From an uncultured Fibrobacterota bacterium (GTDB lineage Bacteria; Fibrobacterota; Chitinivibrionia; Chitinivibrionales; FEN-1185), in the NCBI GenBank assembly GCA_963753345.1, contig CAVWBU010000032.1, positions 64,001 to 128,000 on the forward strand: a DNA stretch of 64,000 nucleotides, read 5' to 3'. Each line of letters starts with the position of its first letter. The stretch's first letter is position 1. The notes beneath the pieces were generated by a model. It saw only the letters and a program-made list of their open reading frames with translations. It was not told the origin of the DNA and made no database searches. The position numbers and the translations under genes are program-made. This document shows, piece by piece, positions 3,138 through 56,372 of this stretch.

Positions 3138-3254
<117 letters not shown>

Positions 3255-3304
3255 AAGCAAAAAGAAGAGTAAAAAAAAAGGAAAGAAGAAAAAATGCACT
3301 CGCC

Positions 3305-4858
3305 GTGAGCGGGACAACGGTGTATGTTGGAGGGAATTTTACCAGCGTTGGCGGCCGGAGCCGCACCCATGTCGCGGCGTTGGATGCGACGACTGGAACT
3401 GCGACGGCTTGGAACCCGAATGCGAACGACCAGGTAAATGCACTCGCCGTGAGCGGGACAACGGTATATGTTGGAGGGCTTTTTAGCGGCATTGGGGGGC
3501 AGGACCGTAATTACCTGGCAGCTCTGGATTCGACAACCGGAAATGCCACGGCATGGAACCCGAAGATGAACAAGGCTGTCCAATCACTCTCAGTGAGCGG
3601 GACAAGGATATATGCAGGAGGATGGTTCGACGGTGTCGGCTGCGAGAACCGAAACCATATCGCCGCATTGGATGCGGCAACAGGAAAGGTTACCGGCTGG
3701 AACCCCAATGCGAACAACAATGTTCTTTCGCTCGCTGTGAGTGGAAAAACAGTATATGCGGGAGGGATTTTCGACAGCATTGGCGGTCAGAGACGTATTG
3801 GAATTGCAGCATTGGATACGATAACCGGCCACGCAACGATCTGGAATCCATTTGCCGACAGCACTGTTTCTTGTTTGTCAGTGAGCGAAACAACGGTTTA
3901 TGCAGGAGGGGATTTTTCCAGTATAGGCGGTCAGGTTCGTAACCATATGGCAGCTTTGGATGCAAAAACAGGGAATGCCACCGGTTGGAACCCTAATGCG
4001 AACTCCGGTGTCATTACAATCGCCGTTTGCAGTACAACGGTGTATGTTGGAGGGGTTTTCACCACCATCGGAGGACTCAGCCGCAACCATATTGCCGCCC
4101 TTGATGTGACAACAGGGAATGTCCTTACCTGGAATCCGAATGCGGATGGCAGTGTTGCCGCAATCGCGGTGAATGGATCAACAGTATATATTGGAGGATA
4201 CTTCCTCAGCATTGGCGGGCAGACCCGCTTCTGTATTGCCGCCCTCGATGCGACAACAGGGAATACCTTGGCCTGGAACCCAAATGCGAATAATTGGGTC
4301 ACTTCACTCGCTGTGAGCGGGACAACCGTATATGCCGGAGGATACTTCAACGGCATTGGCGGTCAGGGCCTCAACTACTTAGCCGGTTTAGATGCGACAA
4401 CAGGGAATGCATTGGCCTGGAACCCAAACGCAAACGGCACTGTATATTCACTCGCTGTGAGCGGGTCAACGGTGTATGTAGGAGGAAGTTTTACCGGCAT
4501 CGGCCAACGTATGGGCCACTACTATTTTGCTCAGTTCGGAGACTATATTCCTAACCCCGTTGTTCATCCTATCTCAGCGCAATCAACCGCAAAGAGCGCC
4601 GGTTTACAGATAATAAGCTCTAATTTCTTATCTGGCGCATTAGTCAAGTTTTCCTATTCGCTTTCCAAAGCAGAGCAGGTCTCCCTGCAGTTGTATAGAA
4701 TTAACGGCCAATTGCAATCCGACCTCATCAACAAGCACCAGCCCGCGGGAAATTATTCACTCACCATGCAACGTGACAAACTTGCCGCGGGCGCGTATCT
4801 GGTCGTCTTCAAAGCGGGGGAGTACCATCAGGAGAAACTGGTCTCTGTGATGAAATAA
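3305..4858 (+). CDS. secreted beta-propeller-type tandem repeat protein with T9SS-like C-terminal domain (true N-terminus lost in the garbled region)
   Basis: 8 WNP units spaced exactly 144 nt apart (3410-4418; 48-aa unit WNPNAN..V.SLAVSG.TVY.GG.F..IGG..R..IAALDA.TG); C-terminus LYRINGQL...LAAGAYLVVFKAG..KLV. Confidence 0.8.
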   Translation: MSGTTVYVGGNFTSVGGRSRTHVAALDATTGTATAWNPNANDQVNALAVSGTTVYVGGLFSGIGGQDRNYLAALDSTTGNATAWNPKMNKAVQSLSVSGTRIYAGGWFDGVGCENRNHIAALDAATGKVTGWNPNANNNVLSLAVSGKTVYAGGIFDSIGGQRRIGIAALDTITGHATIWNPFADSTVSCLSVSETTVYAGGDFSSIGGQVRNHMAALDAKTGNATGWNPNANSGVITIAVCSTTVYVGGVFTTIGGLSRNHIAALDVTTGNVLTWNPNADGSVAAIAVNGSTVYIGGYFLSIGGQTRFCIAALDATTGNTLAWNPNANNWVTSLAVSGTTVYAGGYFNGIGGQGLNYLAGLDATTGNALAWNPNANGTVYSLAVSGSTVYVGGSFTGIGQRMGHYYFAQFGDYIPNPVVHPISAQSTAKSAGLQIISSNFLSGALVKFSYSLSKAEQVSLQLYRINGQLQSDLINKHQPAGNYSLTMQRDKLAAGAYLVVFKAGEYHQEKLVSVMK

Positions 4859-5070: not shown

Positions 5071-5222
5071 CTCCGTGGGTGCCGCCACAACGATGCACGG
5101 CCTTGCAGCTGTTTTGTCAAGGCGGCTACCCAGGAGGGGGTAGCGGAGGACCGGTCGCGTTTCTCGATTGGTGGATTGTCAAGTAACGCGACCGGGCCGG
5201 AGCGAGGGGGAGCCCTCCCCCC
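5071..5222 (+). repeat. structured repeat module B (locus 1)
   Basis: GGGTGCCGCC..GGCGGCTACCCAGGAGGGGGTAGCGGAGGAC-hairpin-GCGAGGGGGA..TCCCCC, shared with 14743, 53242 and 55876. Confidence 0.85.
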
Positions 5223-5247
5223 TTAAATAAGTCTCTACTATTTGTAA

Positions 5248-7461
5248 TTAGAATCTTACGCTTATCCCGAATATCGGCGTTATCCCAAACGGCGTCACCT
5301 CCTGGAACCCGGTCCCGTTGAACTTGTATTCGAGCACCGGCTTGTAGTTGAAGAGGTTGATGATCTCGATAAAGAGCTCCGCTTCGGCGCCGAATATCCT
5401 TTTTGTAAACCCGTACCTGAAATTGGTGGTGAGCAGCCTGTCAAGGCGCCTGGAATAATATCCCGCCGAGGTGTCGATCGACGCGGACCTGCGGCCCACG
5501 CAATCCACCCGCACCAGCTCCGGACAGTACGGCCTTCCGCCCGAGCCCGACACCGACAGCGAAACCGTGTGGTTGCGCAGTATGGACGCGGTCGCGGCGG
5601 CCGAAAACGTGTAGCCCACGTCGGTCCAGTCGTCGTACCAGGCTGCATCGTCGAACTGGTTCTTCACGTCGAACAGGGACGCACCGAGGGAACAGGAAAG
5701 CCAGCCGCGCACGGCATTGACAAGAGAGACTTCGGCGCCGTACACCCTCCGGTGGCCGTCCTGGGGCCGCATGGCGGGCACGCCGGCGGCCGTTGTGTAC
5801 ACCACGTCCTGCACGTCGGGCGAGAGAAAGCGGTATTCCTGGTCGTACCACTTGTAATAGACCTCCACGTTTGACGTAACAAGGCCCCACGGCGTGAGGC
5901 GGTAGCCGAGCGTTCCCTGCCAGCACCTGAGGGGCTTTGCCTGTGCAAGGAGCGAGAGCTCGGAGGTGCGCAGGGAATCGTCCGGAAGGTTCGCGTTAGC
6001 CGAAAGCGCGTCGAAAAGGATGGTGGGAAGGTCGGTGGGAAACTGGTGATACAGTCCCAGCCCGGCGGCAAGGCTGCCAGCGCGGCCCAGTGAGACCATG
6101 CCCGCCACACGCGGCGAAACCGCGACATCGTCAAGCAGCCTGAAATAATCCGCGCGCATGCCGGCGGATGCCGAAAACGGTCCTGCCCGGAGCTCGTAAC
6201 CGGCGAACGCTCCCAGCTCCGGTCCTTCTATGGCAATTGCCTTTTCAACCGGTTTCTCGGCCCAGGCAACGGTGACCGGGGAATCGTTCTGGCAAATGAC
6301 GCAGGTGCCGCTGTTCATCGATTCGTCGGAAACCGAGAAAGAATACTTTGTATCGTAGGCACGGATTCCGGCGGTGATGGACTGGTTTTCGCCGGCTGCG
6401 AATTGCGAGCTGGTATTGAGCGAGGCATGCATGCGGTTGTCCGCATTGCTGCTCACCGGGTTTTTTGCATAGTGCTGTGCGAAGAACGCGTCCGAAAACG
6501 ATTCGAGGCTGTCGTACGATCGCCCGTCGCGCTGTGAATAGCTCACCTGGAACCGGTGCTCCTGAAACTCGTCCTTGTAGTGAAAGAGCAGGCCCGCGCC
6601 GCCCTGGAGGATCCGTTCTATTTCGTCAATGCCGCTATTGTGGGCGGCGCCGTCGTCGCCCTGCTGCACAATGGGGTAGCCGTAATTGTACGTGTTGTAC
6701 GAAAAAAGCCCGGTCGCCGAGATGACCAGGTTCGCGGACGGCAGATACAGAAGCTTGCCGTACAAATCGCCGAGTTTGGGGATGCCTTCGTCGCCGATGA
6801 TCGAGCGGAGCGCGGAAAAGTCCACGTATCGTCCGGCAAGCGCGAACGAGCCCTCTTTGCCGAACGCCGGCCCCTCGACCGAGGCGAGGCCGCCGGTCAG
6901 CTTGATGCCCGCGCTGCCATTTACAGAAGAGAACGATCCGCCTTTCATGTCGATGTCCACCACCGACGACATCCGGGGAGGATACGAGACCGGCATGTCG
7001 CCGGCAAAGAACCGCACCGAACGGATGAAATCGGCATTGATGAAGCCGATGGGGCCGCCCGAGCCGTTCGCTTGGGAAAAATGGTTGATGTTTTCCATTT
7101 CTATGCCGTCGACAAAAAAGACAATCTCGCTGGGGCGGCCGCCGCGGACAAACAGGGTGTTGTCGAATTTCGCCCCGAGCGAGGAGACGATTGACGGCAG
7201 GGTGCCCAGATAGCGGCTGATGTCACCGGCGGCGCCGGCCGCGGTCTTTATTTCCTTCGAGGAAAAGACCACGGCGTTACGGCGGTCTATTCCTGAATCA
7301 CGGATTGACGGCGCGGCCCGCACGACCATTCTGTCAACGTGCTCAGCTTCGGGCCGCGGGGCGGCAACGGAATCGCTCTGCGGCACGGCCGCGGTGTCCT
7401 GGCCGGCCCGGGACGGCAGAACAACAATGAACAGCAACAGAAAGCCGATAACGGATTTCAT
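5248..7461 (-). CDS. TonB-dependent outer-membrane receptor
   Basis: signal peptide MKSVIGFLLLF; plug motifs VRGGRPSE..FVDGIE..NINHF and SSVVDI; C-terminal aromatic strand GISVRF. Confidence 0.85.
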   Translation of the reverse strand: MKSVIGFLLLFIVVLPSRAGQDTAAVPQSDSVAAPRPEAEHVDRMVVRAAPSIRDSGIDRRNAVVFSSKEIKTAAGAAGDISRYLGTLPSIVSSLGAKFDNTLFVRGGRPSEIVFFVDGIEMENINHFSQANGSGGPIGFINADFIRSVRFFAGDMPVSYPPRMSSVVDIDMKGGSFSSVNGSAGIKLTGGLASVEGPAFGKEGSFALAGRYVDFSALRSIIGDEGIPKLGDLYGKLLYLPSANLVISATGLFSYNTYNYGYPIVQQGDDGAAHNSGIDEIERILQGGAGLLFHYKDEFQEHRFQVSYSQRDGRSYDSLESFSDAFFAQHYAKNPVSSNADNRMHASLNTSSQFAAGENQSITAGIRAYDTKYSFSVSDESMNSGTCVICQNDSPVTVAWAEKPVEKAIAIEGPELGAFAGYELRAGPFSASAGMRADYFRLLDDVAVSPRVAGMVSLGRAGSLAAGLGLYHQFPTDLPTILFDALSANANLPDDSLRTSELSLLAQAKPLRCWQGTLGYRLTPWGLVTSNVEVYYKWYDQEYRFLSPDVQDVVYTTAAGVPAMRPQDGHRRVYGAEVSLVNAVRGWLSCSLGASLFDVKNQFDDAAWYDDWTDVGYTFSAAATASILRNHTVSLSVSGSGGRPYCPELVRVDCVGRRSASIDTSAGYYSRRLDRLLTTNFRYGFTKRIFGAEAELFIEIINLFNYKPVLEYKFNGTGFQEVTPFGITPIFGISVRF

Positions 7462-7623
7462 GCTGAGCACCTGTCCAGGAAACCGGACTATGGTCAAAGC
7501 AACGGCGAAAGAGCGACAACTAGAAATATAAGAGCAAACGGGGTTTTTGGATCAGCGGTGGCGAAGAAAGTGTTTTCTGCCAGAAACCACTTAATACAAA
7601 TTCAAATACAAATGGAAGATATC

Positions 7624-8051
7624 TTGGAGGGGGAAGTGTCCCCGTGGCCCCAAGCCTCCTCAGCCTACGGCCTGCGGGGTCTTGGAGCACACCCCCTCGT
7701 GGGTAGCCCCCTAGAAAGCTGGTTCGCTGGAAAGAGGCTTCAGCTGCGGGGGCACCGAGAAAAAGAGTTGAAAGTTGACAGTTGGCAGTTGACGGCGGGA
7801 CTTGGGAGAGAGAACCCGCGTTCGTTCCAAGGATTTCAGCTGGCGCAAAGATATACTTGACCGAATAGATTTCTTCTGCCGCGCGCCAGGCAGGACTGGA
7901 AGGTGCGCTGGAGCGCATTGCCGCTTGACCACGGCCCGAAGGGCACTCGTGGCAAGCGGCAACGAGGCCGAAGGCCGAGCCTGGAAGGAGGGCCGCCGCT
8001 GCGAAGCAGCGGGGCGCCCAAATCTTCTCCTATCTATTGGGGAACGCCCAA
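7624..8051. mobile_element. bipartite structured repeat, locus 2: module B' (-, 7624-7760) plus module A (+, 7877-8051)
   Basis: back-to-back modules, same arrangement as loci 3, 6 and 10; A end is duplicated (GGGGCGCCCAA..GGGGAACGCCCAA); mobility is inferred. Confidence 0.6.
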
Positions 8052-8071
8052 CAAATTAATTTATTAATAGA

Positions 8072-8317
8072 TTAGTTCAATCCACCGCAGCACCCAGCAC
8101 CCGCCCCGCAGTCAGAGGCCCCCGGGCACGAAGCTCCGCTCTGGCATGCGGGCCCGCTTGACATCTTGCCCATGGCAATGCCGCCTACGCGCGACATCAG
8201 TTTCCGGGTATCGGTGGACTTGCACTTGGGACAGGGCAGGATTTTGTTAGAGGAGGAAGAGACGATTTCCTCAAACACAATTCCGCACTTGCCGCATTCG
8301 TACTCGTAAATAGGCAT
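8072..8317 (-). CDS. FmdB-family zinc-ribbon regulatory protein
   Basis: MPIYEYECGKCG..FE....CPKCKS...RKLMS; Cys-rich tail. Confidence 0.9.
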   Translation of the reverse strand: MPIYEYECGKCGIVFEEIVSSSSNKILPCPKCKSTDTRKLMSRVGGIAMGKMSSGPACQSGASCPGASDCGAGAGCCGGLN

Positions 8318-8456
8318 GGGATAAAATCCTTTCGTCGATTATTGTGTGCACAAGGGTCAAAAATACATGATAAAATCAATACGAAGAGCCGGGGCCGGAA
8401 ATTTACCGGATTGCGCTTTTGGCCGGCGGACGGCGAAGCACGGCAAGGATTGAGAA

Positions 8457-9551
8457 ATGATACTCGGCGTTGCACGTGAAATTGCGCTCACCTTCATGGA
8501 CATGGCGCCGTACATGCTCCTGGGCCTGACGTTTGCGGGCGTGCTTCACGTCTTTATCCACAGGGACTTTATAGCAAAGCACCTGGGCGGCAGCAACGCG
8601 GCGTCGGTGGTGAAGGCCGCCCTGTTCGGCATACCACTTCCGCTGTGCTCGTGCGGCGTTCTGCCGGTCGCCCTGTCGCTCCGCAAGGGAAAAGCGTCCG
8701 ACGGCGCCACGATTTCCTTTCTTATTTCCACGCCCCAGACCGGCATAGACTCGATTGCGGCGACCTGGGGAATGCTCGGGCCGGTGTACGCGATCTTTCG
8801 GCCGGTTGCCGCGCTTATCATGGGAATCGTGGGCGGGCTGGCCACAATCCCGTTTTCTTCAAAACTCGACCATCCGCTCGCATCGGACAAGCGCTTTTCC
8901 TGCAACCTCTGCTTTGAACCGCGGCCGCATTCGCATTCGCTCCGGTACCGCGCCAAACGCGTATTTGCCTATGCGTTCCGCGATTTTCTGGACGACATCT
9001 CGGTCCAGTTGACAATAGGAATTGTTGCGGCCGGCCTCATTGCGTTTCTTATCCCAGACCATTTCTTCGAGAAATTTGCGAATAGCGAGCTTCTCTCAAT
9101 GCTTCTGATGATCGTGGTGGGCGTGCCCATGTACATCTGTGCCACGGCGTCGATTCCGGTCGCCGTTGCCCTGATGGCAAAGGGTCTGTCGCCCGGCGCG
9201 GCGTTCGTGTTCCTGGCCGTAGGCTCGGCAACCAACATTTCCTTTATCCTCGTGATTGCCGAGGTGATGGGGAAGAAGATCCTTGCCGTGTATCTTGCCG
9301 CGATTACCGTATTGTCGGTGGCAATGGGCTTTGCGCTCGACGGTATATTCTCCCTTGTCGGAACGGAATCGCTGAGGGGAAAACTTGTTCAGGATTTTTC
9401 AGAGAAGCCTTCGCCGTTGATAATGATCCTGTCGGCGGCATTTTTAATTGTGCTTGGGTTATCACTCGCAAGGGTCATCCGCGCAAAGATTTCCGATCGG
9501 CATAGTTGTCATGATGATGGGCGCCATGGTGAGGGATGTTGTAAGAAATAA
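8457..9551 (+). CDS. SO_0444/DUF318-family (ArsP-like) metal permease
   Basis: GIPLPLCSCGVLP, FLISTPQTG, PMYICATASIP; His/Cys-rich linker and tail. Confidence 0.9.
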   Translation: MILGVAREIALTFMDMAPYMLLGLTFAGVLHVFIHRDFIAKHLGGSNAASVVKAALFGIPLPLCSCGVLPVALSLRKGKASDGATISFLISTPQTGIDSIAATWGMLGPVYAIFRPVAALIMGIVGGLATIPFSSKLDHPLASDKRFSCNLCFEPRPHSHSLRYRAKRVFAYAFRDFLDDISVQLTIGIVAAGLIAFLIPDHFFEKFANSELLSMLLMIVVGVPMYICATASIPVAVALMAKGLSPGAAFVFLAVGSATNISFILVIAEVMGKKILAVYLAAITVLSVAMGFALDGIFSLVGTESLRGKLVQDFSEKPSPLIMILSAAFLIVLGLSLARVIRAKISDRHSCHDDGRHGEGCCKK

Positions 9552-9579
9552 TCCAAATGATGAAAAAAGATTAATTCTT

Positions 9580-10018
9580 TTGCTGGGGGCACCGCTACGC
9601 GTTTCCCCCTCGCTGCGGCCTCCTCGGCCTTCGGCCTGCGGTGTCCTCCGCTCCCCCCTCCAGCGAAGAGGCGCGCCTGGGGCGCTCGACCTGCGCTCGC
9701 GCGGCGTCGCCCCTTCGCAACGCAACCACATAGGTATGCCGCTTCGCGGCGATATTGTATTACGGTGCTATCACTTTTGTAACTTTCCGAATCTGATCAT
9801 TACTAGACATTCAATCAAGCGCCTGTCACCTGCGCGTGCGTTAGGCCGGACCGGAGGTCCCGCCATAGCGGGATGCCGCCCGGACCCGCCGCTACTGCGG
9901 CATAGGGCCGAGGCGGCCCGAGGCCGAAGGCCGACGACCCTTGGAAGCACCCGAAGGGGTGGACCGGAGGGAGGGCCGACCTGACCCAGAGCTTGTCGAG
10001 GGGGAGGGAAACGCCCAA
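9580..10018. mobile_element. bipartite structured repeat, locus 3: variant module B (-, 9580-9718) plus module A (+, 9831-10018)
   Basis: reverse strand GGAGGGGGGAGCGGAGGACACCGCAGGCCGAAGGCCGAGGAGGCCGCAGCGAGGGGGA is nearly identical to the 14743 copy; A ends GGGAAACGCCCAA. Confidence 0.6.
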
Positions 10019-10034
10019 CTTATATTAATATCTT

Positions 10035-12737
10035 ATGCCAACAAGATCATCTACTAATCCCGACAAAAAACTGTATCTCATCGACGGCCACGCCATTGCC
10101 TACCGCGCGTACTACGCGCTTATCAAGAACCCATTGACGGATTCAAAAGGCAGGCCCACGGGCGCGGTGTTCGGGTTTGCAAACTACCTGCTCAAGCTGC
10201 TTGCCGAATATTCGTGTCCGTATGTGGCCGTGGTGTTCGACAGCCCGGTGCCCACGTTCCGCCACGAGCTGTTCAAGGAATACAAGGCGAACCGCGAGGA
10301 AATGCCCGCCGACATGCAGTCGCAGATACCGCTCATCCGCAGGCTGGTGGACGTGTTCAATATTCCTGCCCTCATCCAGCCCGGTCTCGAAGCCGACGAC
10401 ATCATCGCGCATGTCACGACGCGCGCTGCAAAGGACGGGTTCGAGGTGTTCCTTGTCACGCGCGACAAGGACCTCATGCAGCTCGTTGGCCCGAAGGTCC
10501 GCATGCTTGCATTCGAATCGAGCGGCGGCATAGAGGATATCGGCCCCGAACAGGTGAAGGAAAAGCTCGGGGTGCCGCCGGAACAGGTGCGCGACCTTCT
10601 TGCGCTCATGGGCGATGCGTCGGACAACATACCGGGCGTGCCTGGCGTGGGGCCCAAGACCGCACAGAAAATCCTTGAAAAGGCGCACACCATAGACGAT
10701 CTGCTTGCCGATCCTTCGTGCATCGAGAACGAAAAGCTCCGGGCAAAGATCGTCGAGAACAAGGAAACGCTCATCCTGTCCCGCAAGCTCGCGACGCTGC
10801 ACACCGACGTCGGATTCGACCTTAGCCTATCGGACCTTGCCGCGCGTCCTGTTAACAAAAGCGAAGCCGCGGCGTTTTTCAAGGAGCTCGAATTCTCGTC
10901 CCTGCTTTCCCATCCGATGTTTGCGGAGCACAGGAAACTCGATTATCGCGTTACCTTCTGTAAAACCATTGGGGAGCTTGAAGGCTTTGTCGAAAGAATC
11001 GAAAAGGCGAAACTCGTTTCGATCGACACCGAAACCACGAGCCTTGTTCCGCGCGAGGCAACGCTCGTGGGTATTTCGCTCGCGGTTGACAAAACAGACG
11101 CCCTGTATGTGCCGGTGGGCCACACCGCGCCGGAGGGAAATCTTCCCCTTGGCAAAGTCCTCGCCGTGCTGAAACCCGTGATCGAATCCGCCGCAATCGT
11201 CAAGATCGGCCAGAACCTCAAGTACGATTATCAGATATTCAGGAACCTCGGGCTCACGATGGCCGGTATCTCATTCGATGCAATGGTCGCCGGGTATGTA
11301 ATCGATCCCGGCAAGCGCAACTACAGCCTCGACGCCATGGCCGCGCAACTGCTCGGCGTTACCCCAATTCCTATCGAATCGCTTATCGGCAAGGGCGCGA
11401 AACAGAAGAATTTTGCCGAAACAGCAATTGCCGACGCCGCGAACTATTCAGGTGAGGATGTGATTCTCCCGCTGTACCTGAAAGAACTGTTTGAACCCAC
11501 GCTTGAGGAACGCAACCTGATAAAGCTTTTCCGCGATATCGAGATGCCGCTCGTGAGCGTGCTTGCCGACATGGAGTGGGAAGGCGTCTGCATCGACGAG
11601 GTTCTGCTGTCCAGGCTTTCAAGCGAGTACACCAAGCGCCTGTCGGCCATTTCGAAGGACATCTACCGGCTTGCCGGAGAGGAATTCAACCTCAATTCTC
11701 CCAAACAGATATCGGTCGTGCTGTTTGAAAACTTAAAACTGCCGAAATCCAAGAAGACCAAGACCGGCCTGTCCACCGACGTCGACGCCCTGGAGAAACT
11801 GCAGGACAGCCATCCGGTGGTGCCCAAGCTGCTCGAATACCGCGAGGTGCAGAAGCTTTTGTCAACCTACATCGACGCGCTGGGACCGCAGGTGCTCGTG
11901 AAGAGCGGCAGGCTCCACACCACGTTCAACCAGACCATTGCCGCGACCGGCAGGCTGTCGAGCACGAACCCCAACCTCCAGAACATCCCGGTGCGCACCG
12001 ACGCGGGCCGCGCCATCCGCGAGGCGTTTATCGCGCCGGCAGGAAAGGCCATCGTCTCGGCCGATTACTCGCAGATAGACCTTCGCATTCTGGCGCATGT
12101 GTCAAAGGACCGGTTTCTTGCCGACTCGTTCCACGAAGACAAGGACATCCACAGCCAGACCGCGGCGGCCATCTACGGTATCATGCCGGAGCTGGTGACG
12201 CCCGAGATGCGGCGCGCCGCAAAGACCATCAACTTCGGCCTCATGTACGGCATGGGGCCCGTCAACCTGTCGCGCCAGCTCGGCATTTCCTTCAGGGAGG
12301 CCCAGGAATTCATCGACAACTATTTCAAGCAGTTCCCTACCGTCAAGTCGTACATGACGAAAAGCATCGAGGCCGCGCGGGAAAAGGGGTTCTCCGAGAC
12401 CCTGCTCGGCAGGAGGCGCTATTTGCCGGAAATCAACGCCGACAACCGCCAGGTGCGCGAGGCGGCCGAGCGCACCGCGATCAACACGCCCATCCAGGGC
12501 ACCGCGGCCGACATCATCAAGATCGCCATGATCCGCATCAGTAACAACCGCGCGTTGGCGCCATGCCCGTTCACCATGCTCCTGCAGGTCCACGACGAAC
12601 TCGTGTTCGAGGTGAAGGAAGCCGACGCAGACGGCTTTGCGAAATGGGTGTGCGCCATGATGAGCGATGCGTACAAGCTCGACGTGCCGCTCAAGGTGGA
12701 GGCGGGGAAGGGAAGGAATTGGAGTGAGGCGCATTAA
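10035..12737 (+). CDS. polA: DNA polymerase I
   Basis: 5' nuclease (LIDG..AYRAY, GDASDNIPGVPGVG), 3'-5' exonuclease (IDTETT), polymerase motifs SADYSQI, AKTINFG, LQVHDEL. Confidence 0.99.
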   Translation: MPTRSSTNPDKKLYLIDGHAIAYRAYYALIKNPLTDSKGRPTGAVFGFANYLLKLLAEYSCPYVAVVFDSPVPTFRHELFKEYKANREEMPADMQSQIPLIRRLVDVFNIPALIQPGLEADDIIAHVTTRAAKDGFEVFLVTRDKDLMQLVGPKVRMLAFESSGGIEDIGPEQVKEKLGVPPEQVRDLLALMGDASDNIPGVPGVGPKTAQKILEKAHTIDDLLADPSCIENEKLRAKIVENKETLILSRKLATLHTDVGFDLSLSDLAARPVNKSEAAAFFKELEFSSLLSHPMFAEHRKLDYRVTFCKTIGELEGFVERIEKAKLVSIDTETTSLVPREATLVGISLAVDKTDALYVPVGHTAPEGNLPLGKVLAVLKPVIESAAIVKIGQNLKYDYQIFRNLGLTMAGISFDAMVAGYVIDPGKRNYSLDAMAAQLLGVTPIPIESLIGKGAKQKNFAETAIADAANYSGEDVILPLYLKELFEPTLEERNLIKLFRDIEMPLVSVLADMEWEGVCIDEVLLSRLSSEYTKRLSAISKDIYRLAGEEFNLNSPKQISVVLFENLKLPKSKKTKTGLSTDVDALEKLQDSHPVVPKLLEYREVQKLLSTYIDALGPQVLVKSGRLHTTFNQTIAATGRLSSTNPNLQNIPVRTDAGRAIREAFIAPAGKAIVSADYSQIDLRILAHVSKDRFLADSFHEDKDIHSQTAAAIYGIMPELVTPEMRRAAKTINFGLMYGMGPVNLSRQLGISFREAQEFIDNYFKQFPTVKSYMTKSIEAAREKGFSETLLGRRRYLPEINADNRQVREAAERTAINTPIQGTAADIIKIAMIRISNNRALAPCPFTMLLQVHDELVFEVKEADADGFAKWVCAMMSDAYKLDVPLKVEAGKGRNWSEAH

Positions 12738-12826
12738 AGAAGTTGAAGGTTGAAAGTTGAAGGTTGAAAGTGAGGGAGCGAAAAAGGAGAGCGTTCATCA
12801 ATAGTACTTGCTCCTGCTGTCAACTG

Positions 12827-13783
12827 TCAACCGTCAACTGTCAACAATACTTTTAATATTCCCCGCTTCTTCGAATACTCAATCGCCTCCAGGCCTTTCT
12901 CAATCGTAAATTCTTTTGAAATCATTGGTGAAAAATCAGGCTTGTAGGTTTCCAGAAAACGAAGCGCTTCGGAAAAACGTCCGCAGCGCGAACCGACAAC
13001 GGTGATTTCATTGACTACAATGGGGGCGGGGTTGAAAGAAAGGTTCCGCGCGTAGGTGCTCTTGAGAACCAGCGTCCCACGCGGCTTGACGCATTCGATT
13101 GCGGTGGAAAACGCGTCCGGGTTTCCGGAGGCTTCAATCACCACATCGAACTGCTCGTGGTTTAAGTCACTTGACAGGACGGCAGAAATGCCGAGCCTTT
13201 CCATCATTTCAAGCTTTTCAACGTGTCTGCCGACAGCCATGGCTTTGCACGAAACCGTCGCGAGCACATGGGCAATGAGCAGCCCGAGCTTTCCGTCGCC
13301 GATGAGCAGCACCTTCTTGTTCTCAAGCACAACTTGTTCTTTGATTTCGAGCGCTGCGGCCAGGGGCTCGATGAAAATTGCGCTTGTGTCCGGGACGCTG
13401 TCTGGAATCATCACGACATTTCTTGACGGGACGCAGATAGATTCGGCGAATGCGCCGTCGCGGCCCCGTATGCCGATAACGGTCCGATTGGGGCAGTGCC
13501 GCTCCATTCCGCTTTGGCAATAACCGCACTCGCCGCAGCCGCAGTTGATTTCAGCGGTTGCGCGTTTGCCGATGAGACTTTTATCATCGGATTCTTCGAC
13601 AACGCCTACAAACTCGTGGCCGAGTATGCCTTTAAAACCCGGCATGTATCCTGCGAGGATTTCGAGGTCGGTGTTGCAGATGCTGGCCCTTGTAACACGC
13701 GGATCAAGACTTCGCCCTTTGTTACGGATGGGAACAGGCACGTCTGCGAGGCGGAGCGTTCCGTCGAAGTAGAGGGATTTCAT
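12827..13783 (-). CDS. zinc-dependent alcohol dehydrogenase family protein
   Basis: ICNTD, GHEFVG, CGECGYC..HC, IGDGKLG; start placed at MKSLYFDG because the upstream ORF extension is repeat module A. Confidence 0.92.
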   Translation of the reverse strand: MKSLYFDGTLRLADVPVPIRNKGRSLDPRVTRASICNTDLEILAGYMPGFKGILGHEFVGVVEESDDKSLIGKRATAEINCGCGECGYCQSGMERHCPNRTVIGIRGRDGAFAESICVPSRNVVMIPDSVPDTSAIFIEPLAAALEIKEQVVLENKKVLLIGDGKLGLLIAHVLATVSCKAMAVGRHVEKLEMMERLGISAVLSSDLNHEQFDVVIEASGNPDAFSTAIECVKPRGTLVLKSTYARNLSFNPAPIVVNEITVVGSRCGRFSEALRFLETYKPDFSPMISKEFTIEKGLEAIEYSKKRGILKVLLTVDG

Positions 13784-13816
13784 AGTATCCTGAGTTTCGC
13801 TCTTATTCAAACGTGC

Positions 13817-13971
13817 TTGGGCGTTCCCCTCCCCCTCGACAAGCTCGGGGTCGGGTCGGTCTCCCTTCGGGCTCGGCCATGCGGCCTCGTTGCCGGCTGC
13901 CCAAGGCCCTGCGGGCCGTGGTCGGCGGCAATGCGCTCTGGCGCACCCTTCGGTCCACCTAACGCGCGGCA
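13817..13971 (-). repeat. structured repeat module A (locus 4, left end)
   Basis: reverse complement TGCCGCGCGTTAGGTGGACCGAAGGGT...GGGGAACGCCCAA. Confidence 0.85.
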
Positions 13972-14042
13972 AGAGAAGTTTCATCAGTCAATATAATTGC
14001 TCCCGCCATCATGAATTGTCAAGGAACAGAACAGGTCTTCTC

Positions 14043-14566
14043 TTAGAGCTTCATTGCTAATTCCATCAACTCTTTTTCCATCTTGAAATATCGCTTCATC
14101 GCCATTTTCACCGATTCGACTTTTTCTTTTTCCATTTTCCTTCGTGCTAATATCTCGCTAAACCGTTCTTCAAGCGTCACCACCCGGTCCTTGACGCGCG
14201 CGTCCGCGTACGCGACGATCTTGTTTTCCAGCGTGCGCGGCAGAAAAGATTCGTTTGGTGATCCACGCAGTACCGAAAGCTCGTACATGCTCCCGTGCAT
14301 CACGATGGCCGCGAGGTCGGAAAGGCCTTCCTTTTTCAATATATTGATGGAATTGATTTCATGATCCCCCTTTCTCCTCTTCCGATATCATGCAGAAGGG
14401 CCGCGATGCGGACCTTTTCGGGGTTTACATCAAGGGATGGACGCAAGTCATGGATCTTTATTGCGAGGTCAAATGCAAAAGCGGAGACTTTCCTTGAATG
14501 CTCGATGCGGGATTTGTCAAGGCCGTATGTTCTAAGAAGAGCGAGTGCTTGACGATAAGTAACCAT
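14043..14566 (-). CDS. HD-domain (HDIG) phosphohydrolase, frameshifted near 14365
   Basis: IEHSRKV..AALLHDIGR in one frame; H..TLENKIVAYADARV in the next; the break is in an A/G homopolymer run. Confidence 0.8.
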
Positions 14567-14742
14567 AAGTATCAAATGAAAAGTGATGCACGGGCTTGGG
14601 TGTTCCAATTCCTAACATTAATCCGGCTCTGCTGGCGATCTCTCGTGGTGCCCCCCCCCGCAGCCGGCGTATCGCTTGCAATGACATATTGACTTGTATT
14701 GATCACGATGTCGGCTTGATTCCCGGGCCCGGCCAGCTATCG

Positions 14743-14874
14743 CTCGTGGGTGCCGCCGCAGCGAAGTATGGTCTTGCAGCTATTTTGTCAAGGCGGCCAC
14801 CCAGGAGGGGGTAGCGGAGGACAGCCGCAGGCCGAAGGCCGAGGAGGCCGTAGCGAGGGGGAGACTTCCCCCAC
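14743..14874 (+). repeat. structured repeat module B (locus 4, right end)
   Basis: full B consensus; a partial extra B 5' end at about 14641-14697. Confidence 0.85.
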
Positions 14875-14882
14875 TTGAAAAT

Positions 14883-16246
14883 CTATTTTTTAAAAAATTC
14901 CTGATACAATGTATTCACCGCCTTCGTCTCATCCGACGCGTCAATGCCGAATATCATGCTTATTTCCGAGCTTCCCTGGTTGCACATTTTGATGTTGACG
15001 CCTGCCTTGGACAGCGCCGCCGCGGCCTGCGCCAGTACGCCGATCTTGTGCAGCAGGCCTTCGCCCACCACGGCCACCAGCGCGATGCCGAACTCCGACT
15101 TGATGTCGTCGGGATGGAGCGTGTCGTCGATCTGGCGGATGATGTTGTTGACGTCCTCGGGCTTGAGCTGGTTCTGGTCGAGGATGATGGAGATGTTGTC
15201 CACGCCCGAAGGGCAGTGCTCGTACGAGAGGTTGAGGTCCTCCAGAATAGAGAGGAGCCGCCGCACGAACCCCTTCTCGCGGTTCATGAGGAATTTCTGC
15301 AATGTAAAGCTGCAGTAGCCGCCGCCGCTGGCGATGCCGGTCACGTCGCGCTGGCTGGGCAGCCGCTCCGATACGATGAGCGTGCCCGGGTTGTCGAGGT
15401 TGAAGGTGTTGCGCAGCCGGATGGGGATCTTTTTCCGCATCACCGGGCGCACGGCCTCCTCGTGCAGCACGTTGAAGCCGATGTAGGAGAGCTCGCGCAT
15501 TTCCTTGTAGGTGAGCGCCGGGATCTGGAGCGGGTTCTCCACGGCGTTGGGGTTGGCCGAGAAGATCCCGTCGACGTCGGTCCAGTTCTCGTATTCCACT
15601 GCGTCAAGGGCCTCGGCCAGGATCGAGCCCGTGAGGTCCGAGCCGCCGCGGGAGAACGTGACCACGTCACCCTCGCGCGTAACGCCGAAGAACCCCGGGA
15701 ACACCACGATATGCTGGGAGCAGATTTTCTTGAGGCCCGCAAGCTTGAGCGAGATTTCGCTCAAGGGCTGAGCGTCGCCGAAACTGGGGGTCACGATCAT
15801 GCCCGCGTCCTTCGGCGAGACGTACAGCGCCTTCCTGCCGATGTGCTTGAGGTATTCGGCGAACAGCCGGGCATTGACGTCTTCCCCTCCCGCAACCACG
15901 AGGTCGCGGAACTTGCCCGGATGCTCCTTGGGCGCGGAGATCCGGGTGTCGAAATCGTCGAGCACCGCCTCGATGATGTCTTTCTTCACGCCGAGCGGTT
16001 CGTAGATGCCGCGGAAGCGGTTCTTGACGTCGCCGATCTCCGGCGAGGCGTCCTTGCCGGAAAGCGCCTTGGCGGTCGCCTTGATGAGAAGATCGGTGAC
16101 CTTGACGGAAACACCTTTTGCCTTTCCCGGCGCCGAGACCACCACGCAGCGCCTGGTGGGTTTGAGCTCGAGGATCTTCGCAATCTGATGCAGGGTCTCT
16201 TGGTCGCAACCGATGTTCCGCCGAACTTGCACACGATGAATTCCAT
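14883..16246 (-). CDS. lysC: aspartate kinase (frameshift near 16200)
   Basis: MEFIVCKFGGTSVA start; VVVSAPGK, FSRGGSDLTG, WTDVDG; ACT domain QGSSEISM. Confidence 0.93.
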
Positions 16247-17590: not shown

Positions 17591-17607
17591 TATAAATAAA
17601 ATAATTC

Positions 17608-17746
17608 TTGGTGGGGGAGGTATCCCCCTGGCCCCAAGCCTCCTCGTCCAGCGGGACTGCGGGGTCTTGGGGCACACCCCCTCGTGGGTAGCCCCCAAGG
17701 GAGTTGGTTGGCAAGAAAGAAACCTCGCTTGCGGGGGCACCGAGAA
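17608..17746 (-). repeat. structured repeat module B' (locus 5, no A partner seen)
   Basis: TTGGTGGGGGAGGTATCCCCCT..CACACCCCCTCGTGGGTAGCCCCC..GCGGGGGCACCGAGAA, as at 7624 and 30896. Confidence 0.85.
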
Positions 17747-17829
17747 GGATTGTTGATTGATGATTGCGAAATGCGGATTGAGGATGAATCCGCAATCTAC
17801 ATTCTACAATCTACAATTCTAGGGGCCTT

Positions 17830-30748: not shown

Positions 30749-30895
30749 ATATATGAATTTACCACAAGAGAACGGCCGCGAACACCTTAAAATGGAGGAA
30801 AAAAGAAGTATATGTATTCACGTTGTATACATGGGGGGTTGTAAGATTTTGATATAAAGTGAATTGTGAGATGGAAGGACAAGTAACTAAAATAT

Positions 30896-31326
30896 TTGGT
30901 GGGGGAAGTTTCCCCCTGGGGTACAACCAACCGGCGAATGGAATATGCAATTTCTATACAGGCCGGTTGTTTGCACCCACACCCCCTCGTGGGTAGCCCC
31001 CAAGTAAGTTGCTTTGCAAGAAAGAAACTTTGGTTGCGGGGGCACCGAGAAAGAGAGTTGGAAAGCTGACGGTTGACAGTTGACAGCAGGACAATGAGAA
31101 GTCCTGACGGATTGTCTAATGATTCCGGCTGGCGCAAGAATATAACTTGACTGAAGAGATTACCGCTGCCGCGCGTTAGGCGCGACTGGAGGTCCCGCCG
31201 AAGCGGGATGCCGCCCGGACCCGGCCCTGTGGGCCATAGGGCCGAGGCGGCCCGGGGCCGAAGGCTGAGACGCGGAAGGAGAGCCGCCCCGCGCCTTTGC
31301 TCACGGAAGGCGCGGGGAACGCCCAA
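30896..31326. mobile_element. bipartite structured repeat, locus 6: B' (-, 30896-31050) plus A (+, 31167-31326)
   Basis: same order, heptamer spacer and TGGCG..TTGAC leader as locus 2. Confidence 0.6.
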
Positions 31327-31405
31327 GACATTGACTGAATTATAGAAGCCCGAGGTGCTTTCCTGAAAAATCATTATATTTAGGACATACCTGCACATAG
31401 GGGGA

Positions 31406-36384: not shown

Positions 36385-36650
36385 TTTGCAAGAAAGAGAC
36401 TTCCGCCGCGGGTATCCAGAAGGTGGTCACCTTTGGAAACTAGTTGGCGCAAAATAGATTGGTTTGCTGATAAGAATTCCGTTGCCGCGCGTTAGGTGGA
36501 CCGAAGGGTGAGCAAGAGCGAATTGCCGGCCGACCCTCCCCGAAGGGGACTACGGGCGGTCCGGCAACGAGGCGGACGGCCGAGCCCGCAGGGAGACCGA
36601 CCCTTGGTTGGGGCGCCTGGTCCTGCGCTCCAACCAAGGGGAACGCCCAA
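36385..36650. mobile_element. bipartite structured repeat, locus 7: degenerate B' remnant (36385-36421) plus A (+, 36483-36650)
   Basis: TTTGCAAGAAAGAGACTT..GCGGG matches the B' interior (cf. 31013-31045); full A module. Confidence 0.55.
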
Positions 36651-36688
36651 TTCTTCCTGCTTTGTCAAAAGAACTCCTAGAGGTACTC

Positions 36689-38572: not shown

Positions 38573-38652
38573 TAGGGCGTTCCCCGCAAGACAAAAGAAG
38601 AGTTGGGCGCCCCGCGGCTTCGCCGCAGCGAGGGGGATACTTCCCCCGCCAA
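38573..38652. mobile_element. minimal form of the bipartite repeat, locus 8: A 3' end (-) fused to B 3' end (+)
   Basis: TAGGGCGTTCCCC..TTGGGCGCCCCGCGGCTTCGCCGC runs directly into AGCGAGGGGGATACTTCCCCCGCCAA. Confidence 0.6.
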
Positions 38653-55875: not shown

Positions 55876-56348
55876 TTGGTGGGGGAAGTATCCCCCTCGC
55901 TGCGGCCCGGCGCTACCTAACAACTCAACTCTCGTCAATCGCGCCGGTCCTTCGCTACCCCCTCCTGGGTGGCCGCCTTGACAAAGCGGTAGCAAAACCA
56001 TGTATTGCTGTGGCGGCACCCACGGAGAATAGTTGAAACGTTGAATAGTTGAAAAGCCAATACCAGAAAACTGGACAAAGAAAAACAAGTGTCATTGCGA
56101 GCGCAGCGAAGCAATCTCCCAATGATTTTTACCTAAAAGAACCTTGTCTGATTTGCTGCGAATGCCGATTGGCGTGAGAATGTAACTTGACGGAATAGAG
56201 TTCTTCTGCCGCGCGTTAGGTGGACCGGAGGGTGAGCTAGAGCGAATTGCCGGCCGACCCCGGCCGAAGGCCATCGGGGCGGTCCGGCAACGAGGCGAAC
56301 AGCCGAGCCCGCAGGGAGACCGACCCCGCGAAGCGGGGGAACGCCCAA
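55876..56348. mobile_element. bipartite structured repeat, locus 10: B (-, 55876-56027), REP-like element (56090-56120), A (+, 56207-56348)
   Basis: back-to-back modules; 55876-56120 is an inverted homolog of 4965-5222. Confidence 0.6.
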
Positions 56349-56372
56349 ATCTTCTTAAGAAATTAATTTGAA

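Follow-up and report, generated by a model that had tools for sequence, protein, structure and literature searches.

A dispersed, high-copy intergenic repeat with a conserved seven-helix fold in an uncultured Fibrobacterota bacterium

Introduction

The DNA analyzed here is a stretch of 64,000 nucleotides (nt) from an uncultured peat bacterium of the phylum Fibrobacterota, order Chitinivibrionales (the window, C32:64001-128000 of an assembly of 4.52 Mb in 55 contigs), and the element in question is Module A, of which the window holds six copies. Module A is a dispersed, amplified repeat with 413 matches in the genome, and its copies share a fold of seven helices in which pairing is far above chance. 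It is uncatalogued and fits no catalogued RNA or mobile element. Our best explanation, held with moderate confidence, is that Module A is the core of a modular, non-autonomous, selfish interspersed repeat of the BIME, BOX and TwoAYGGAY kind, the fold of which would be needed for propagation on the + strand while resident copies drift.

A dispersed repeat family

A profile made from the six window copies was searched with nhmmer against the bacterium's own assembly and gave the 413 matches at E ≤ 0.001. Of these, 239 are full-length, at 144-234 nt (median 168), and they divide 127 to 112 between the two strands. Together the matches make up 62.5 kb, or 1.4% of the genome, and they are found in 347 of the 2360 intergenic gaps of at least 50 nt, gaps being defined by our own crude call of open reading frames (ORFs). 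The copies, old and diverse, have a mean pairwise identity of 72% and a median identity to the nearest neighbour of 89% (range 78-100%), and at 30% distance they split into three clusters of 124, 104 and 11. Three near-identical sets of four to five genes, on contigs C4, C5 and C16:176-182 kb, suggest strain variants or assembly redundancy (contamination estimate 4.8%), so that the count includes some Module A copies more than once. Contigs obtained from four DNA runs over positions 5200-15199 end at repeats, and the joints listed for them are cross-mappings between copies; no contig from these runs over this interval crosses an empty Module A site.

The seven-helix fold and its covariation

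Plain MAFFT alignment with RNAalifold on all 239 full-length copies failed on the variable arms and gave no usable structure. The structure was therefore written by hand on a 16-copy alignment (37 pairs), and the covariance model R1 was built from it. P1 encloses the whole of Module A. Within it P2, followed by a two-part P3, leads to a junction that bears hairpin P4, the long arm P5 and hairpin P6, while P7 is a separate arm immediately before the 3' strand of P1. R1 gave 200 matches in 848 kb (the window and 40 loci picked for density). Pairing and changes on both sides of a pair were scored in three alignments:

Own genome, best matches, 150 copies: 94.1% paired, 81.4% when shuffled, 33-50% when slid by 1-3 positions; both-side changes in 29 of 37 pairs
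Ten other genomes of the order or phylum, 29 copies: 95.5% paired, 74.3% when shuffled, 34-51% when slid; 29 of 37 pairs
Public records of metagenome-assembled genomes (MAGs), 19 copies: 97.7% paired, 75.0% when shuffled, 31-48% when slid; 23 of 37 pairs

None of 500 shuffles equalled the observed values of pairing and both-side change in any of the three alignments. In the own-genome alignment 639 cells were changed on both sides, and the slid versions had at most 8 such pairs. The alignments were fitted to R1 and favour it, but the margins are large all the same. A reading made earlier from the letters of the window (the sequence-only reading) had held that the fold is kept while the sequence drifts and had proposed a covariation check on larger alignments. 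The check bears this out: P1-P3 covary in the own genome, in the 10 other genomes and in the public MAGs. Because the strands of P1-P3 lie about 100 nt apart, swapping of a single hairpin cannot explain their covariation. Among own, other-genome and public MAG copies P1 takes the forms GCGTT/AACGC, GGGTT/AACCC, GCCTT/AAGGC and GTGTT/AATAC, and further forms are GCGCC/GGCGC, GCGTG/CACGC and GGCCT/AGGCC. The seven-helix core of about 105 nt carries near-invariant junction bases (TTAGG, GGAGGG, ACCGAGGCGAAYAGCCGAGCCCGGA and GGGGAACGCCCAA), and the lengths of P5 and P7 vary across genera and across phylum-level record labels.

The six window copies

The six copies described in the sequence-only reading are real, since nhmmer and R1 each recovered exactly six. 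The copies, with their nhmmer spans and R1 cores, and the parts read in copies 1 and 2 are as follows:

7877..8021 (+), copy 1, GCGCC/GGCGC subfamily; nhmmer 7870-8053, R1 7876-8021 at 111.8 bits
7883-7887/8013-8017 (+), P1 of copy 1, pairs checked
7889-7891/7992-7994 (+), P2 of copy 1, pairs checked
7896-7897/7986-7987 and 7901-7903/7980-7982 (+), P3 of copy 1, pairs checked
7904-7908/7913-7917 (+), P4 of copy 1, pairs checked
7918-7962 (+), P5 arm of copy 1, pairs checked
7966-7969/7973-7976 (+), P6 of copy 1, pairs checked
7996-8002/8006-8012 (+), P7 of copy 1, pairs checked
8039..8051 (+), orphan second 3' end GGGGAACGCCCAA, 17 nt past the true end of copy 1
9830..10018 (+), copy 2, with a GCCGCC/GGCGGC long arm; nhmmer 9829-10020, R1 9830-10018 at 57.4 bits
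9936..9962 (+), 27-nt mini-hairpin inserted in copy 2 after P6
13817..13972 (-), copy 3; nhmmer 13816-13977, R1 13817-13972 at 128 bits
31166..31326 (+), copy 4, with an upstream B block at 30887-31050 and a heptamer tract; nhmmer 31160-31328, R1 31166-31326 at 72.9 bits
36482..36650 (+), copy 5; nhmmer 36477-36652, R1 36482-36650 at 144.5 bits
56206..56348 (+), copy 6, the shortest and the reference for helix numbering; nhmmer 56201-56350, R1 56206-56348 at 145.1 bits

The stem differences reported earlier were all found again in the letters: a second stem of GGT/ACC or GGC/GCC, a hairpin of GCGC-N4-GCGC or CCCGC-N4-GCGGG, and a long arm of TTGCCG/CGGCAA or GCCGCC/GGCGGC. Two copies have in place of that hairpin a GAGC/GCGA stem with tandem G.A. 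The closing stem does read GCGTT/AACGC in five copies and GCGCC/GGCGC in copy 1, but the latter form, which had been taken for a double compensatory change, is not private to this copy and marks a subfamily of 21-22 of the 148 distinct rows. The last arm varies in length as described (9-76 nt) and pairs with itself in 135 of 150 copies. Copy 1 had been extended to 8051, whereas it stops at 8021; the orphan end beyond it cannot pair with the GCGCC 5' strand of the copy. A similar doubled end occurs at 38575-38630 (locus I8), and a doubled end is typical of the GCGCC/GGCGC subfamily; the copies listed for subfamily 2 have nhmmer lengths of 156-207, mostly longer than the R1 matches of the same copies (about 145-150). 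The differences between the window copies are mostly subfamily or whole-arm types and not independent compensatory mutations. The earlier opposition of selection on the fold to duplication is not supported either, Module A being an amplified, dispersed repeat.

Copy 2 ends 17 nt upstream of the polA start codon at 10035. Copy 3 lies between two genes whose sister-species counterparts overlap by ATGA with no element between them; an AGGA resembling a Shine-Dalgarno sequence is retained.

The folding strand and the constraint on resident copies

The hairpin loops of Module A are one-sided: CGAAG was counted 294 times against 13 for CTTCG, and CCGAAGG 185 times against 1 for CCTTCGG. The three-base loops C(GAA)G (120) and C(GCA)G (40) are the commonest, with TGGA also in the leading group. 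UUCG tetraloops on the - strand were considered and rejected, as the hairpins are symmetric around three-base loops. The pairs of the 150 own copies are almost purely Watson-Crick, with G-U in 47 of 5431 cells. An excess of A-C cells, which might mark the - strand, was also discarded: 77 of the 111 A-C cells fall in three pairs, shifts of register or helix boundary were read in two of these, and the subtype sequence points to the same shift in the third (39-123). Without these three mis-registered pairs G-U stands at 42 and A-C at 34. In the 29 copies from 10 other genomes G-U was found 20 times and A-C 4 times (two-sided binomial p ~0.0015 by our own arithmetic), in an alignment fitted to an RNA model and with copies that are related within one genome. 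The + strand of Module A coincides with the strand that is locally rich in G in 112 cases and with the other strand in 76 (genes 54%, same measure), and in the usual reading of GC skew the G-rich strand would have the sequence of the lagging-strand template. We conclude that the + strand is the folding strand, as RNA or as single-stranded DNA.

Private substitutions were called in 204 copies, each compared with its two nearest neighbours. Their rate was 0.033 per site at paired sites and 0.054 at unpaired sites. Single changes that break or weaken a pair numbered 437 (107 to G-U, 112 to A-C and 218 to other mismatches), and of the double changes 48 preserve a Watson-Crick pair and 8 destroy one. 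That G-U is no more frequent than A-C speaks against RNA-level selection on most resident copies, and so do the 437 changes without compensation. Resident copies in this genome look largely unconstrained, their stems being broken about as often as by chance, and selection on the fold is supported at the level of the family only. The excess of pair-keeping double changes means that the source lineages are under constraint, or else that copies swap or correct each other's arms. The P5/P7 mosaic of the copy at 36482 (see below) suggests such exchange of arms.

A larger modular unit

Module A is part of a larger unit, with the order block B, TTGACAG-type heptamer tract, small hairpin, TGGCGC...TTGAC lead-in, seven-helix core and GGGGAACGCCCAA end. 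Upstream of copy 1 its parts were located as follows:

7615..7760 (+), block B, starting with hairpin GGGGGAAGTGTCCCC
7775..7795 (+), heptamer tract TTGACAG-TTGGCAG-TTGACGG, between block B and Module A
7841..7876 (+), 5' extension of copy 1, with TGGCGC at 7841-7846, TTGAC at 7857-7861 and a T-rich lead-in to TGCC

According to the information content of 238 copies, conservation reaches about 30 nt upstream of the modelled unit (TGGCGC...TTGAC...); at the other side the 3' end GGGGAACGCCCAA is sharply conserved and is followed by a T-rich stretch. TTGAC is present 11-20 nt before the start of the modelled unit (27-31 nt before TGCC) in 173 of the 239 full-length copies and is enriched about 6-fold upstream of Module A (1.72 per 200 nt against 0.27 at random). 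A sigma-54 reading of TGGCGC...TTGAC was rejected, the spacing in the consensus of the copies being 7 nt too long. Strict heptamer tracts within 250 nt upstream of full-length copies are co-oriented with them in 20 out of 20 cases.

Block B is a repeat family in its own right, seen at 7607-7760, 17591-17765 and 30880-31060, and opens with hairpin GGGGGAAGTnTCCCCC. It has 289 matches genome-wide, 83 of them without a Module A within 400 nt. A co-oriented B lies upstream of 150 of the 239 full-length copies at a median gap of 120 nt, and B was never found in the opposite orientation (0) or downstream (0). Distinct extragenic modules thus occur in fixed order and orientation, as in BIME-like mosaics. 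The alignment of this genome with that of the sister species breaks exactly in the loop of the B hairpin, at 7639/7640, which hints at recombination there.

The 27-nt mini-hairpin has 85 matches in the genome at up to 4 mismatches, 51 of which are inside Module A and 34 outside Module A matches. Within Module A it is always on the same strand and occupies at least three positions (in P5, after P6 and in P7), and it looks like a smaller mobile or duplicating unit. Head-to-head doublets of Module A, about 100 nt apart, were found 29 times and tail-to-tail doublets not at all (0). The one doublet of the 29 that was read joins two different subtypes and is not palindromic.

Site turnover between species

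Occupied sites differ between this genome and its relatives. The gap between polA and the gene upstream of it holds a Module A on the + strand here, one of another subtype on the - strand in the closest species (93% polA identity) and one on the + strand in a third species, and it is empty in three others. The closest, or sister, species was compared at five window sites. At 36482 its copy has the same place and orientation, with a P5 of another type and a P7 of the same type; the site at 13817 is empty in the sister species. At three of the five sites the element of the sister species is in the opposite orientation or of another subtype, the comparison at 31167 resting on coordinates only. 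Conversely, the space between polA and the gene after it (12735-12847), which in the sister species holds a full A plus B, contains here nothing but two inverted heptamer tracts, (GTTGAAR)x4 and (CTGTCAA)x4; these may be the footprint of a lost unit. In two species of another genus, Module A copies that are 82% identical lie at unrelated loci.

The gene upstream of polA (8457-9551 here) has in G002-G005 an extra C-terminal stretch, the nucleotide sequence of which, judged by eye, looks like a heavy-metal-associated (HMA-type) domain. In G002-G004 the gap to polA has no repeat unit; here and in the closest relative the C-terminal part is missing and units fill the space.

Distribution in other lineages

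In a sample of 41 relatives, four of the five other species of the genus appeared saturated with Module A, with matches in 70-74 of 74 scored candidates. In the remaining one (G003, 99% complete) no match was found among the 74 of its 613 candidates that were scored. The other families of the order gave either no match or 1-18. Across a sample of the phylum 13 of 151 genomes had a match, and 12 of these 13 belong to the same order. Public species genomes were scanned with a 20-base pattern taken from P6 and its flanks, which gave at least 80 loci. The taxon labels of these MAGs are those of the submitters' own records:

One Chitinivibrionales MAG, at least 33 loci
One MAG labelled 'Bacteroidetes bacterium', at least 19 loci
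One MAG labelled 'uncultured Saprospiraceae bacterium', at least 15 loci
Three other Chitinivibrionales/Fibrobacter-type MAGs, at least 9 loci
Singles labelled Pirellulaceae, Anaerobutyricum, Kiloniellales and 'uncultured bacterium', at least 4 loci

R1 gave 19 matches in 16 of 21 public loci to which it was applied, with no match in the Pirellulaceae and Kiloniellales loci and in three of the five 'Bacteroidetes' loci. In the Saprospiraceae-labelled MAG (4.8 Mb; mean G+C 49% over the 116 kb of loci fetched) R1 matches 93 of the 150 candidates scored, which puts the number of copies at 93 at least. These copies measure about 110 nt each and their P5 has shrunk to a short hairpin. Full-text searches of the literature turned up no account of such repeats in Fibrobacterota or Chitinivibrionales. 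In another family of the order (G022, locus L048), sub-threshold matches to the Acido-Lenti-1 RNA (1629-1682 and 2045-2091; 23-25.5 bits against a gathering score of 37) adjoin a Module A copy and may be a second repeat family there.

Genomic setting

Gaps that hold Module A (n=231) are convergent in 73 cases, tandem in 112 (64 co-directional and 48 anti-directional) and divergent in 46. As the genome has 724 convergent, 2210 tandem and 731 divergent gaps (3665 in total), Module A is enriched in convergent gaps (73/231 against 724/3665). The upstream gene is directed at Module A in 137 of the 231 gaps (p 0.006) and the downstream gene is co-oriented with it in 110; all four gap types are occupied. 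The distance from the 3' end to the next gene has medians of 22-58 nt. Since the units fill intergenic spaces, gaps within operons included, they must be transcribed with their neighbours, in either sense. A riboswitch or cis-regulatory leader was rejected in view of downstream co-orientation in 110 of 231 cases, the occupation of all gap types and the neighbours in low-copy genomes. At four loci of such genomes Module A adjoins unrelated genes (URO-D, an OPT transporter, an AraC regulator and DUF58), and no partner gene was found for it. The two copies in 7500-10100, when scanned, had neither a sigma-70 promoter nor an intrinsic terminator at their ends, though the promoter type of the host may differ. 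Of the 11 sequencing runs found, none is listed as RNA.

By crude ORF clustering, the only large paralogue family in the genome is that of the GH2 glycoside hydrolases, with 14 members of about 930 amino acids (locus L014, 6881-9682, on contig C15, and 13 paralogues). The one GH2 gene examined is flanked by inward-pointing Module A copies, (+) 6497-6638 and (-) 9718-9888. Elsewhere in the window, 3142-3294 is a run of about 150 nearly pure A bases, unusual in a contig from a bacterium and perhaps an artefact of assembly. Directly after it, at 3296-4459, seven to ten tandem repeats of 144 nt (60-88% identity) follow, probably a gene for a repeat-domain protein.

Searches for known RNAs and mobilisers

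In the 64-kb window nothing reached the Rfam gathering score. In E-value mode, applied to 7600-8100 and 12 other loci, Rfam gave chance-level matches only and nothing that recurred. Twister-sister RNA (RF02681) was rejected, as its single match, at 7962-8030, reached 16.9 bits (E 0.75; gathering score 34) and was absent at the 12 further loci. TwoAYGGAY RNA (RF01731) was absent from the same sequences even at E 5-10, and Module A has no AYGGAY loops.

Three known classes of mobiliser (Y1_Tnp, TnpB and RVT_1) are absent from this assembly. Some carriers of Module A do have Y1_Tnp genes (8 in G002, 4 in G153). R1 found no Module A, at E ≤1, in 5 TnpB and 6 Y1 loci of relatives. With filters off, one clear copy (31 bits) was found in G153 about 550 nt from one of the 4 Y1 genes, the rest being at most 17 bits and about 1 kb away. 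A retron or group II intron-like RNA was rejected, PF00078 having no match in this genome (G000), in G005 and in G153.

How Module A may spread

According to the preferred interpretation, a selfish interspersed repeat, new copies of Module A would be made at intergenic sites by machinery acting in trans, which would recognise the folded + strand, be it the transcript or DNA in single-stranded form. Copying would continue only in lineages with all seven helices and the conserved bases of the junctions intact, and after insertion a copy would drift almost neutrally. Units transcribed with their neighbours could secondarily serve as stable RNA structures, like REP and BOX. If copying is limited to intact folds, the fold and its junctions would persist across genera and labelled phyla while P5 and P7 vary.

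Several findings weigh against this interpretation. No mobiliser candidate was found at home: Y1_Tnp (PF01797) has no match in this assembly (94% complete) and none in the closest relative (G001, 73% complete), TnpB (PF07282) none in this assembly and matches in 5 of the 41 genomes, and RVT_1 (PF00078) none here and none in the copy-rich G005 and in G153; crude ORF clustering revealed no multi-copy transposase among the paralogue families. Terminal inverted repeats and a target-site duplication are the hallmarks of miniature inverted-repeat transposable elements, which are cut-down DDE transposons. At two filled-versus-empty sites no target-site duplication was seen, the flanks being too diverged for base-level junctions, and the ends complement each other only over the 5 bp of P1 plus TG/CA, without a longer terminal inverted repeat. 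Nearest-neighbour identity (89%) is similar to the divergence between this genome and its sister, yet only one of five sites is shared, which points to recombination among copies and not to simple insertion and decay. Furthermore, the private substitution rate at paired sites is 0.61 of that at unpaired sites, and against the 48 pair-keeping double changes about 3 would be expected from independent hits (our arithmetic), which indicates constraint or templated correction on recent lineages. Finally, the distant conservation of the junctions, the variable peripheral arms and the excess of G-U over A-C outside the genus fit a functional RNA at least as well.

A serious rival, in our view possible though rather unlikely, is indeed that Module A encodes, in many copies, a working structured RNA, for instance a ribozyme, a guide scaffold or an RNA that sequesters protein. 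Each copy, or many of them, would be transcribed from the + strand and act as RNA, and the high copy number of some lineages would be secondary. The core of about 105 nt is kept with near-invariant junctions while P5 and P7 differ in length across genera and labelled phyla, the loops are strongly one-sided, the core is preceded by a conserved lead-in and followed by a T-rich flank, and G-U exceeds A-C 20 to 4 in the other genomes. The architecture, with upstream arrays of short motifs and divergent doublets, is also like that of TwoAYGGAY loci (bioRxiv 10.64898/2026.09.22.753630). However, the alignment behind that G-U count was fitted to an RNA model and its copies within one genome are related, and in the own genome the private substitutions (107 G-U against 112 A-C) and the 150 copies (42 against 34) lack such an excess. 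The two copies scanned have no sigma-70-type promoter or intrinsic terminator at their ends, and with 64 co-directional and 48 anti-directional tandem gaps read-through would often give the wrong strand. Sites turn over between sister species, and in one species of the genus none of the scored candidates proved to be a copy. An improbable further view is that Module A is a self-propagating structured nucleic acid, its core of about 105 nt being active itself or recruiting a host copying enzyme. It could be a ribozyme, or its folded strand could be a recombination substrate for ordinary host replication or repair proteins. This would explain how about 100-400 copies arose in separate lineages of two labelled phyla (Fibrobacterota-Bacteroidota group) without a known mobiliser here.

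Module A might alternatively act as DNA, which is quite improbable: its + strand, once single-stranded (during transfer, say, or as lagging-strand template), would fold into a site for a nucleoid protein or a DNA enzyme of the host, or Module A would form a chromosome-organising cruciform. The near-pure Watson-Crick pairing (G-U in 47 of 5431 cells) agrees with it, as do the commonest loops C(GAA)G and C(GCA)G, which we take to be of the unusually stable C-GNA-G type of DNA mini-hairpins, and the weak bias of the + strand towards the G-rich strand (112 against 76). This bias is small, however, with genes at 54%; a branched structure of seven helices with conserved unpaired junctions exceeds what a duplex-binding protein needs; and the excess of G-U over A-C outside the genus suits RNA as well as single-stranded DNA. 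Very improbable, and already weakened by the searches, is an end of the IS200/IS605 type or a REP/REPIN moved by RAYT, that is, a non-autonomous derivative or TnpB guide scaffold mobilised by a Y1 HUH enzyme. High copy number, extragenic position, structure, a sharply conserved 3' end and head-to-head doublets would fit it, and some carriers have Y1_Tnp. The REP/REPIN unit is a short imperfect palindrome (~20-40 nt) that replicates as a symmetric inverted doublet, and its Y1 (RAYT) gene is usually flanked by repeats. Neither this assembly nor the closest relative (73% complete) has Y1_Tnp, TnpB is missing here, and R1 was blank at the 5 TnpB and 6 Y1 loci of relatives; in G153, where a single clear copy lies near a Y1 gene, the 4 Y1 genes are not tightly flanked. 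With about 150 nt and seven helices the unit is unlike a single hairpin of about 35 nt, and the doublet that was read joins two subtypes. A REP/REPIN-RAYT system as such was rejected on the absence of a Y1 gene, the length of the unit (144-234 nt, 37 modelled pairs) and the asymmetry of the one doublet read.

Significance

Module A units take up about one tenth of the intergenic DNA of this bacterium by the crude ORF call. Because they lie within medians of 22-58 nt from genes and inside operons, they are part of the ends of most transcripts and probably shape expression. To our knowledge, the fold is more elaborate and better supported by covariation than those of the classic repeat families. 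The core persists in lineages labelled as different phyla with no known mobiliser alongside, which together with TwoAYGGAY points to a class of multi-copy structured elements. In practice, such repeats break metagenome assemblies and could mislead searches for riboswitches and small RNAs. New in this analysis are the private-substitution test, the evidence on the folding strand, the negative searches for three classes of mobiliser, the comparison of individual sites with those of the sister species and the minimal high-copy form in a Bacteroidota-labelled MAG.

Comparison with known systems

Module A belongs to none of BIME, BOX and TwoAYGGAY and resembles them in kind. With the BIME/REP of enterobacteria and the REPIN-RAYT system of Pseudomonas it shares hundreds of extragenic, GC-rich, structured copies, mosaics of modules in fixed orientation, enrichment in convergent gaps, positions in operons, inverted doublets and site differences between relatives. 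It differs in being branched, with seven helices in 105-190 nt and conserved junctions where theirs is a single hairpin of about 35 nt; moreover, no Y1 (RAYT) gene is found in this assembly and the doublet read pairs unlike subtypes. BOX of Streptococcus pneumoniae and ERIC/Correia are likewise modular non-coding boxes that are co-transcribed and encode no transposase. Their structures are simple extended hairpins or have terminal inverted repeats, whereas in Module A the long-range P1-P3 enclose four local arms and no terminal inverted repeats were seen beyond the P1 stem. Integron attC sites and IS200/IS605 ends also keep structure while sequence varies, with almost only Watson-Crick pairs and, it appears, one folding strand. 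These DNA elements, recognised as folded single strands, are one or two imperfect hairpins beside a recombinase or transposase gene; Module A has seven helices, is dispersed and has no such gene.

The closest likeness is to TwoAYGGAY (RF01731). Its extended loci in Pseudomonas are described as multi-hairpin structures on a long basal stem in tens to hundreds of copies, with upstream arrays of 5-7-base motifs, divergent doublets, a copy number that varies between close relatives and larger repeats alongside (bioRxiv 10.64898/2026.09.22.753630). Module A shares the multi-hairpin form, the upstream motif arrays, the divergent doublets, the varying copy number and the larger accompanying repeats. 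It differs from TwoAYGGAY in having no sequence or model similarity and no AYGGAY loops, in its helix plan and host phylum, and in the position of the larger partner repeat, which is upstream of Module A (block B) and downstream of TwoAYGGAY.

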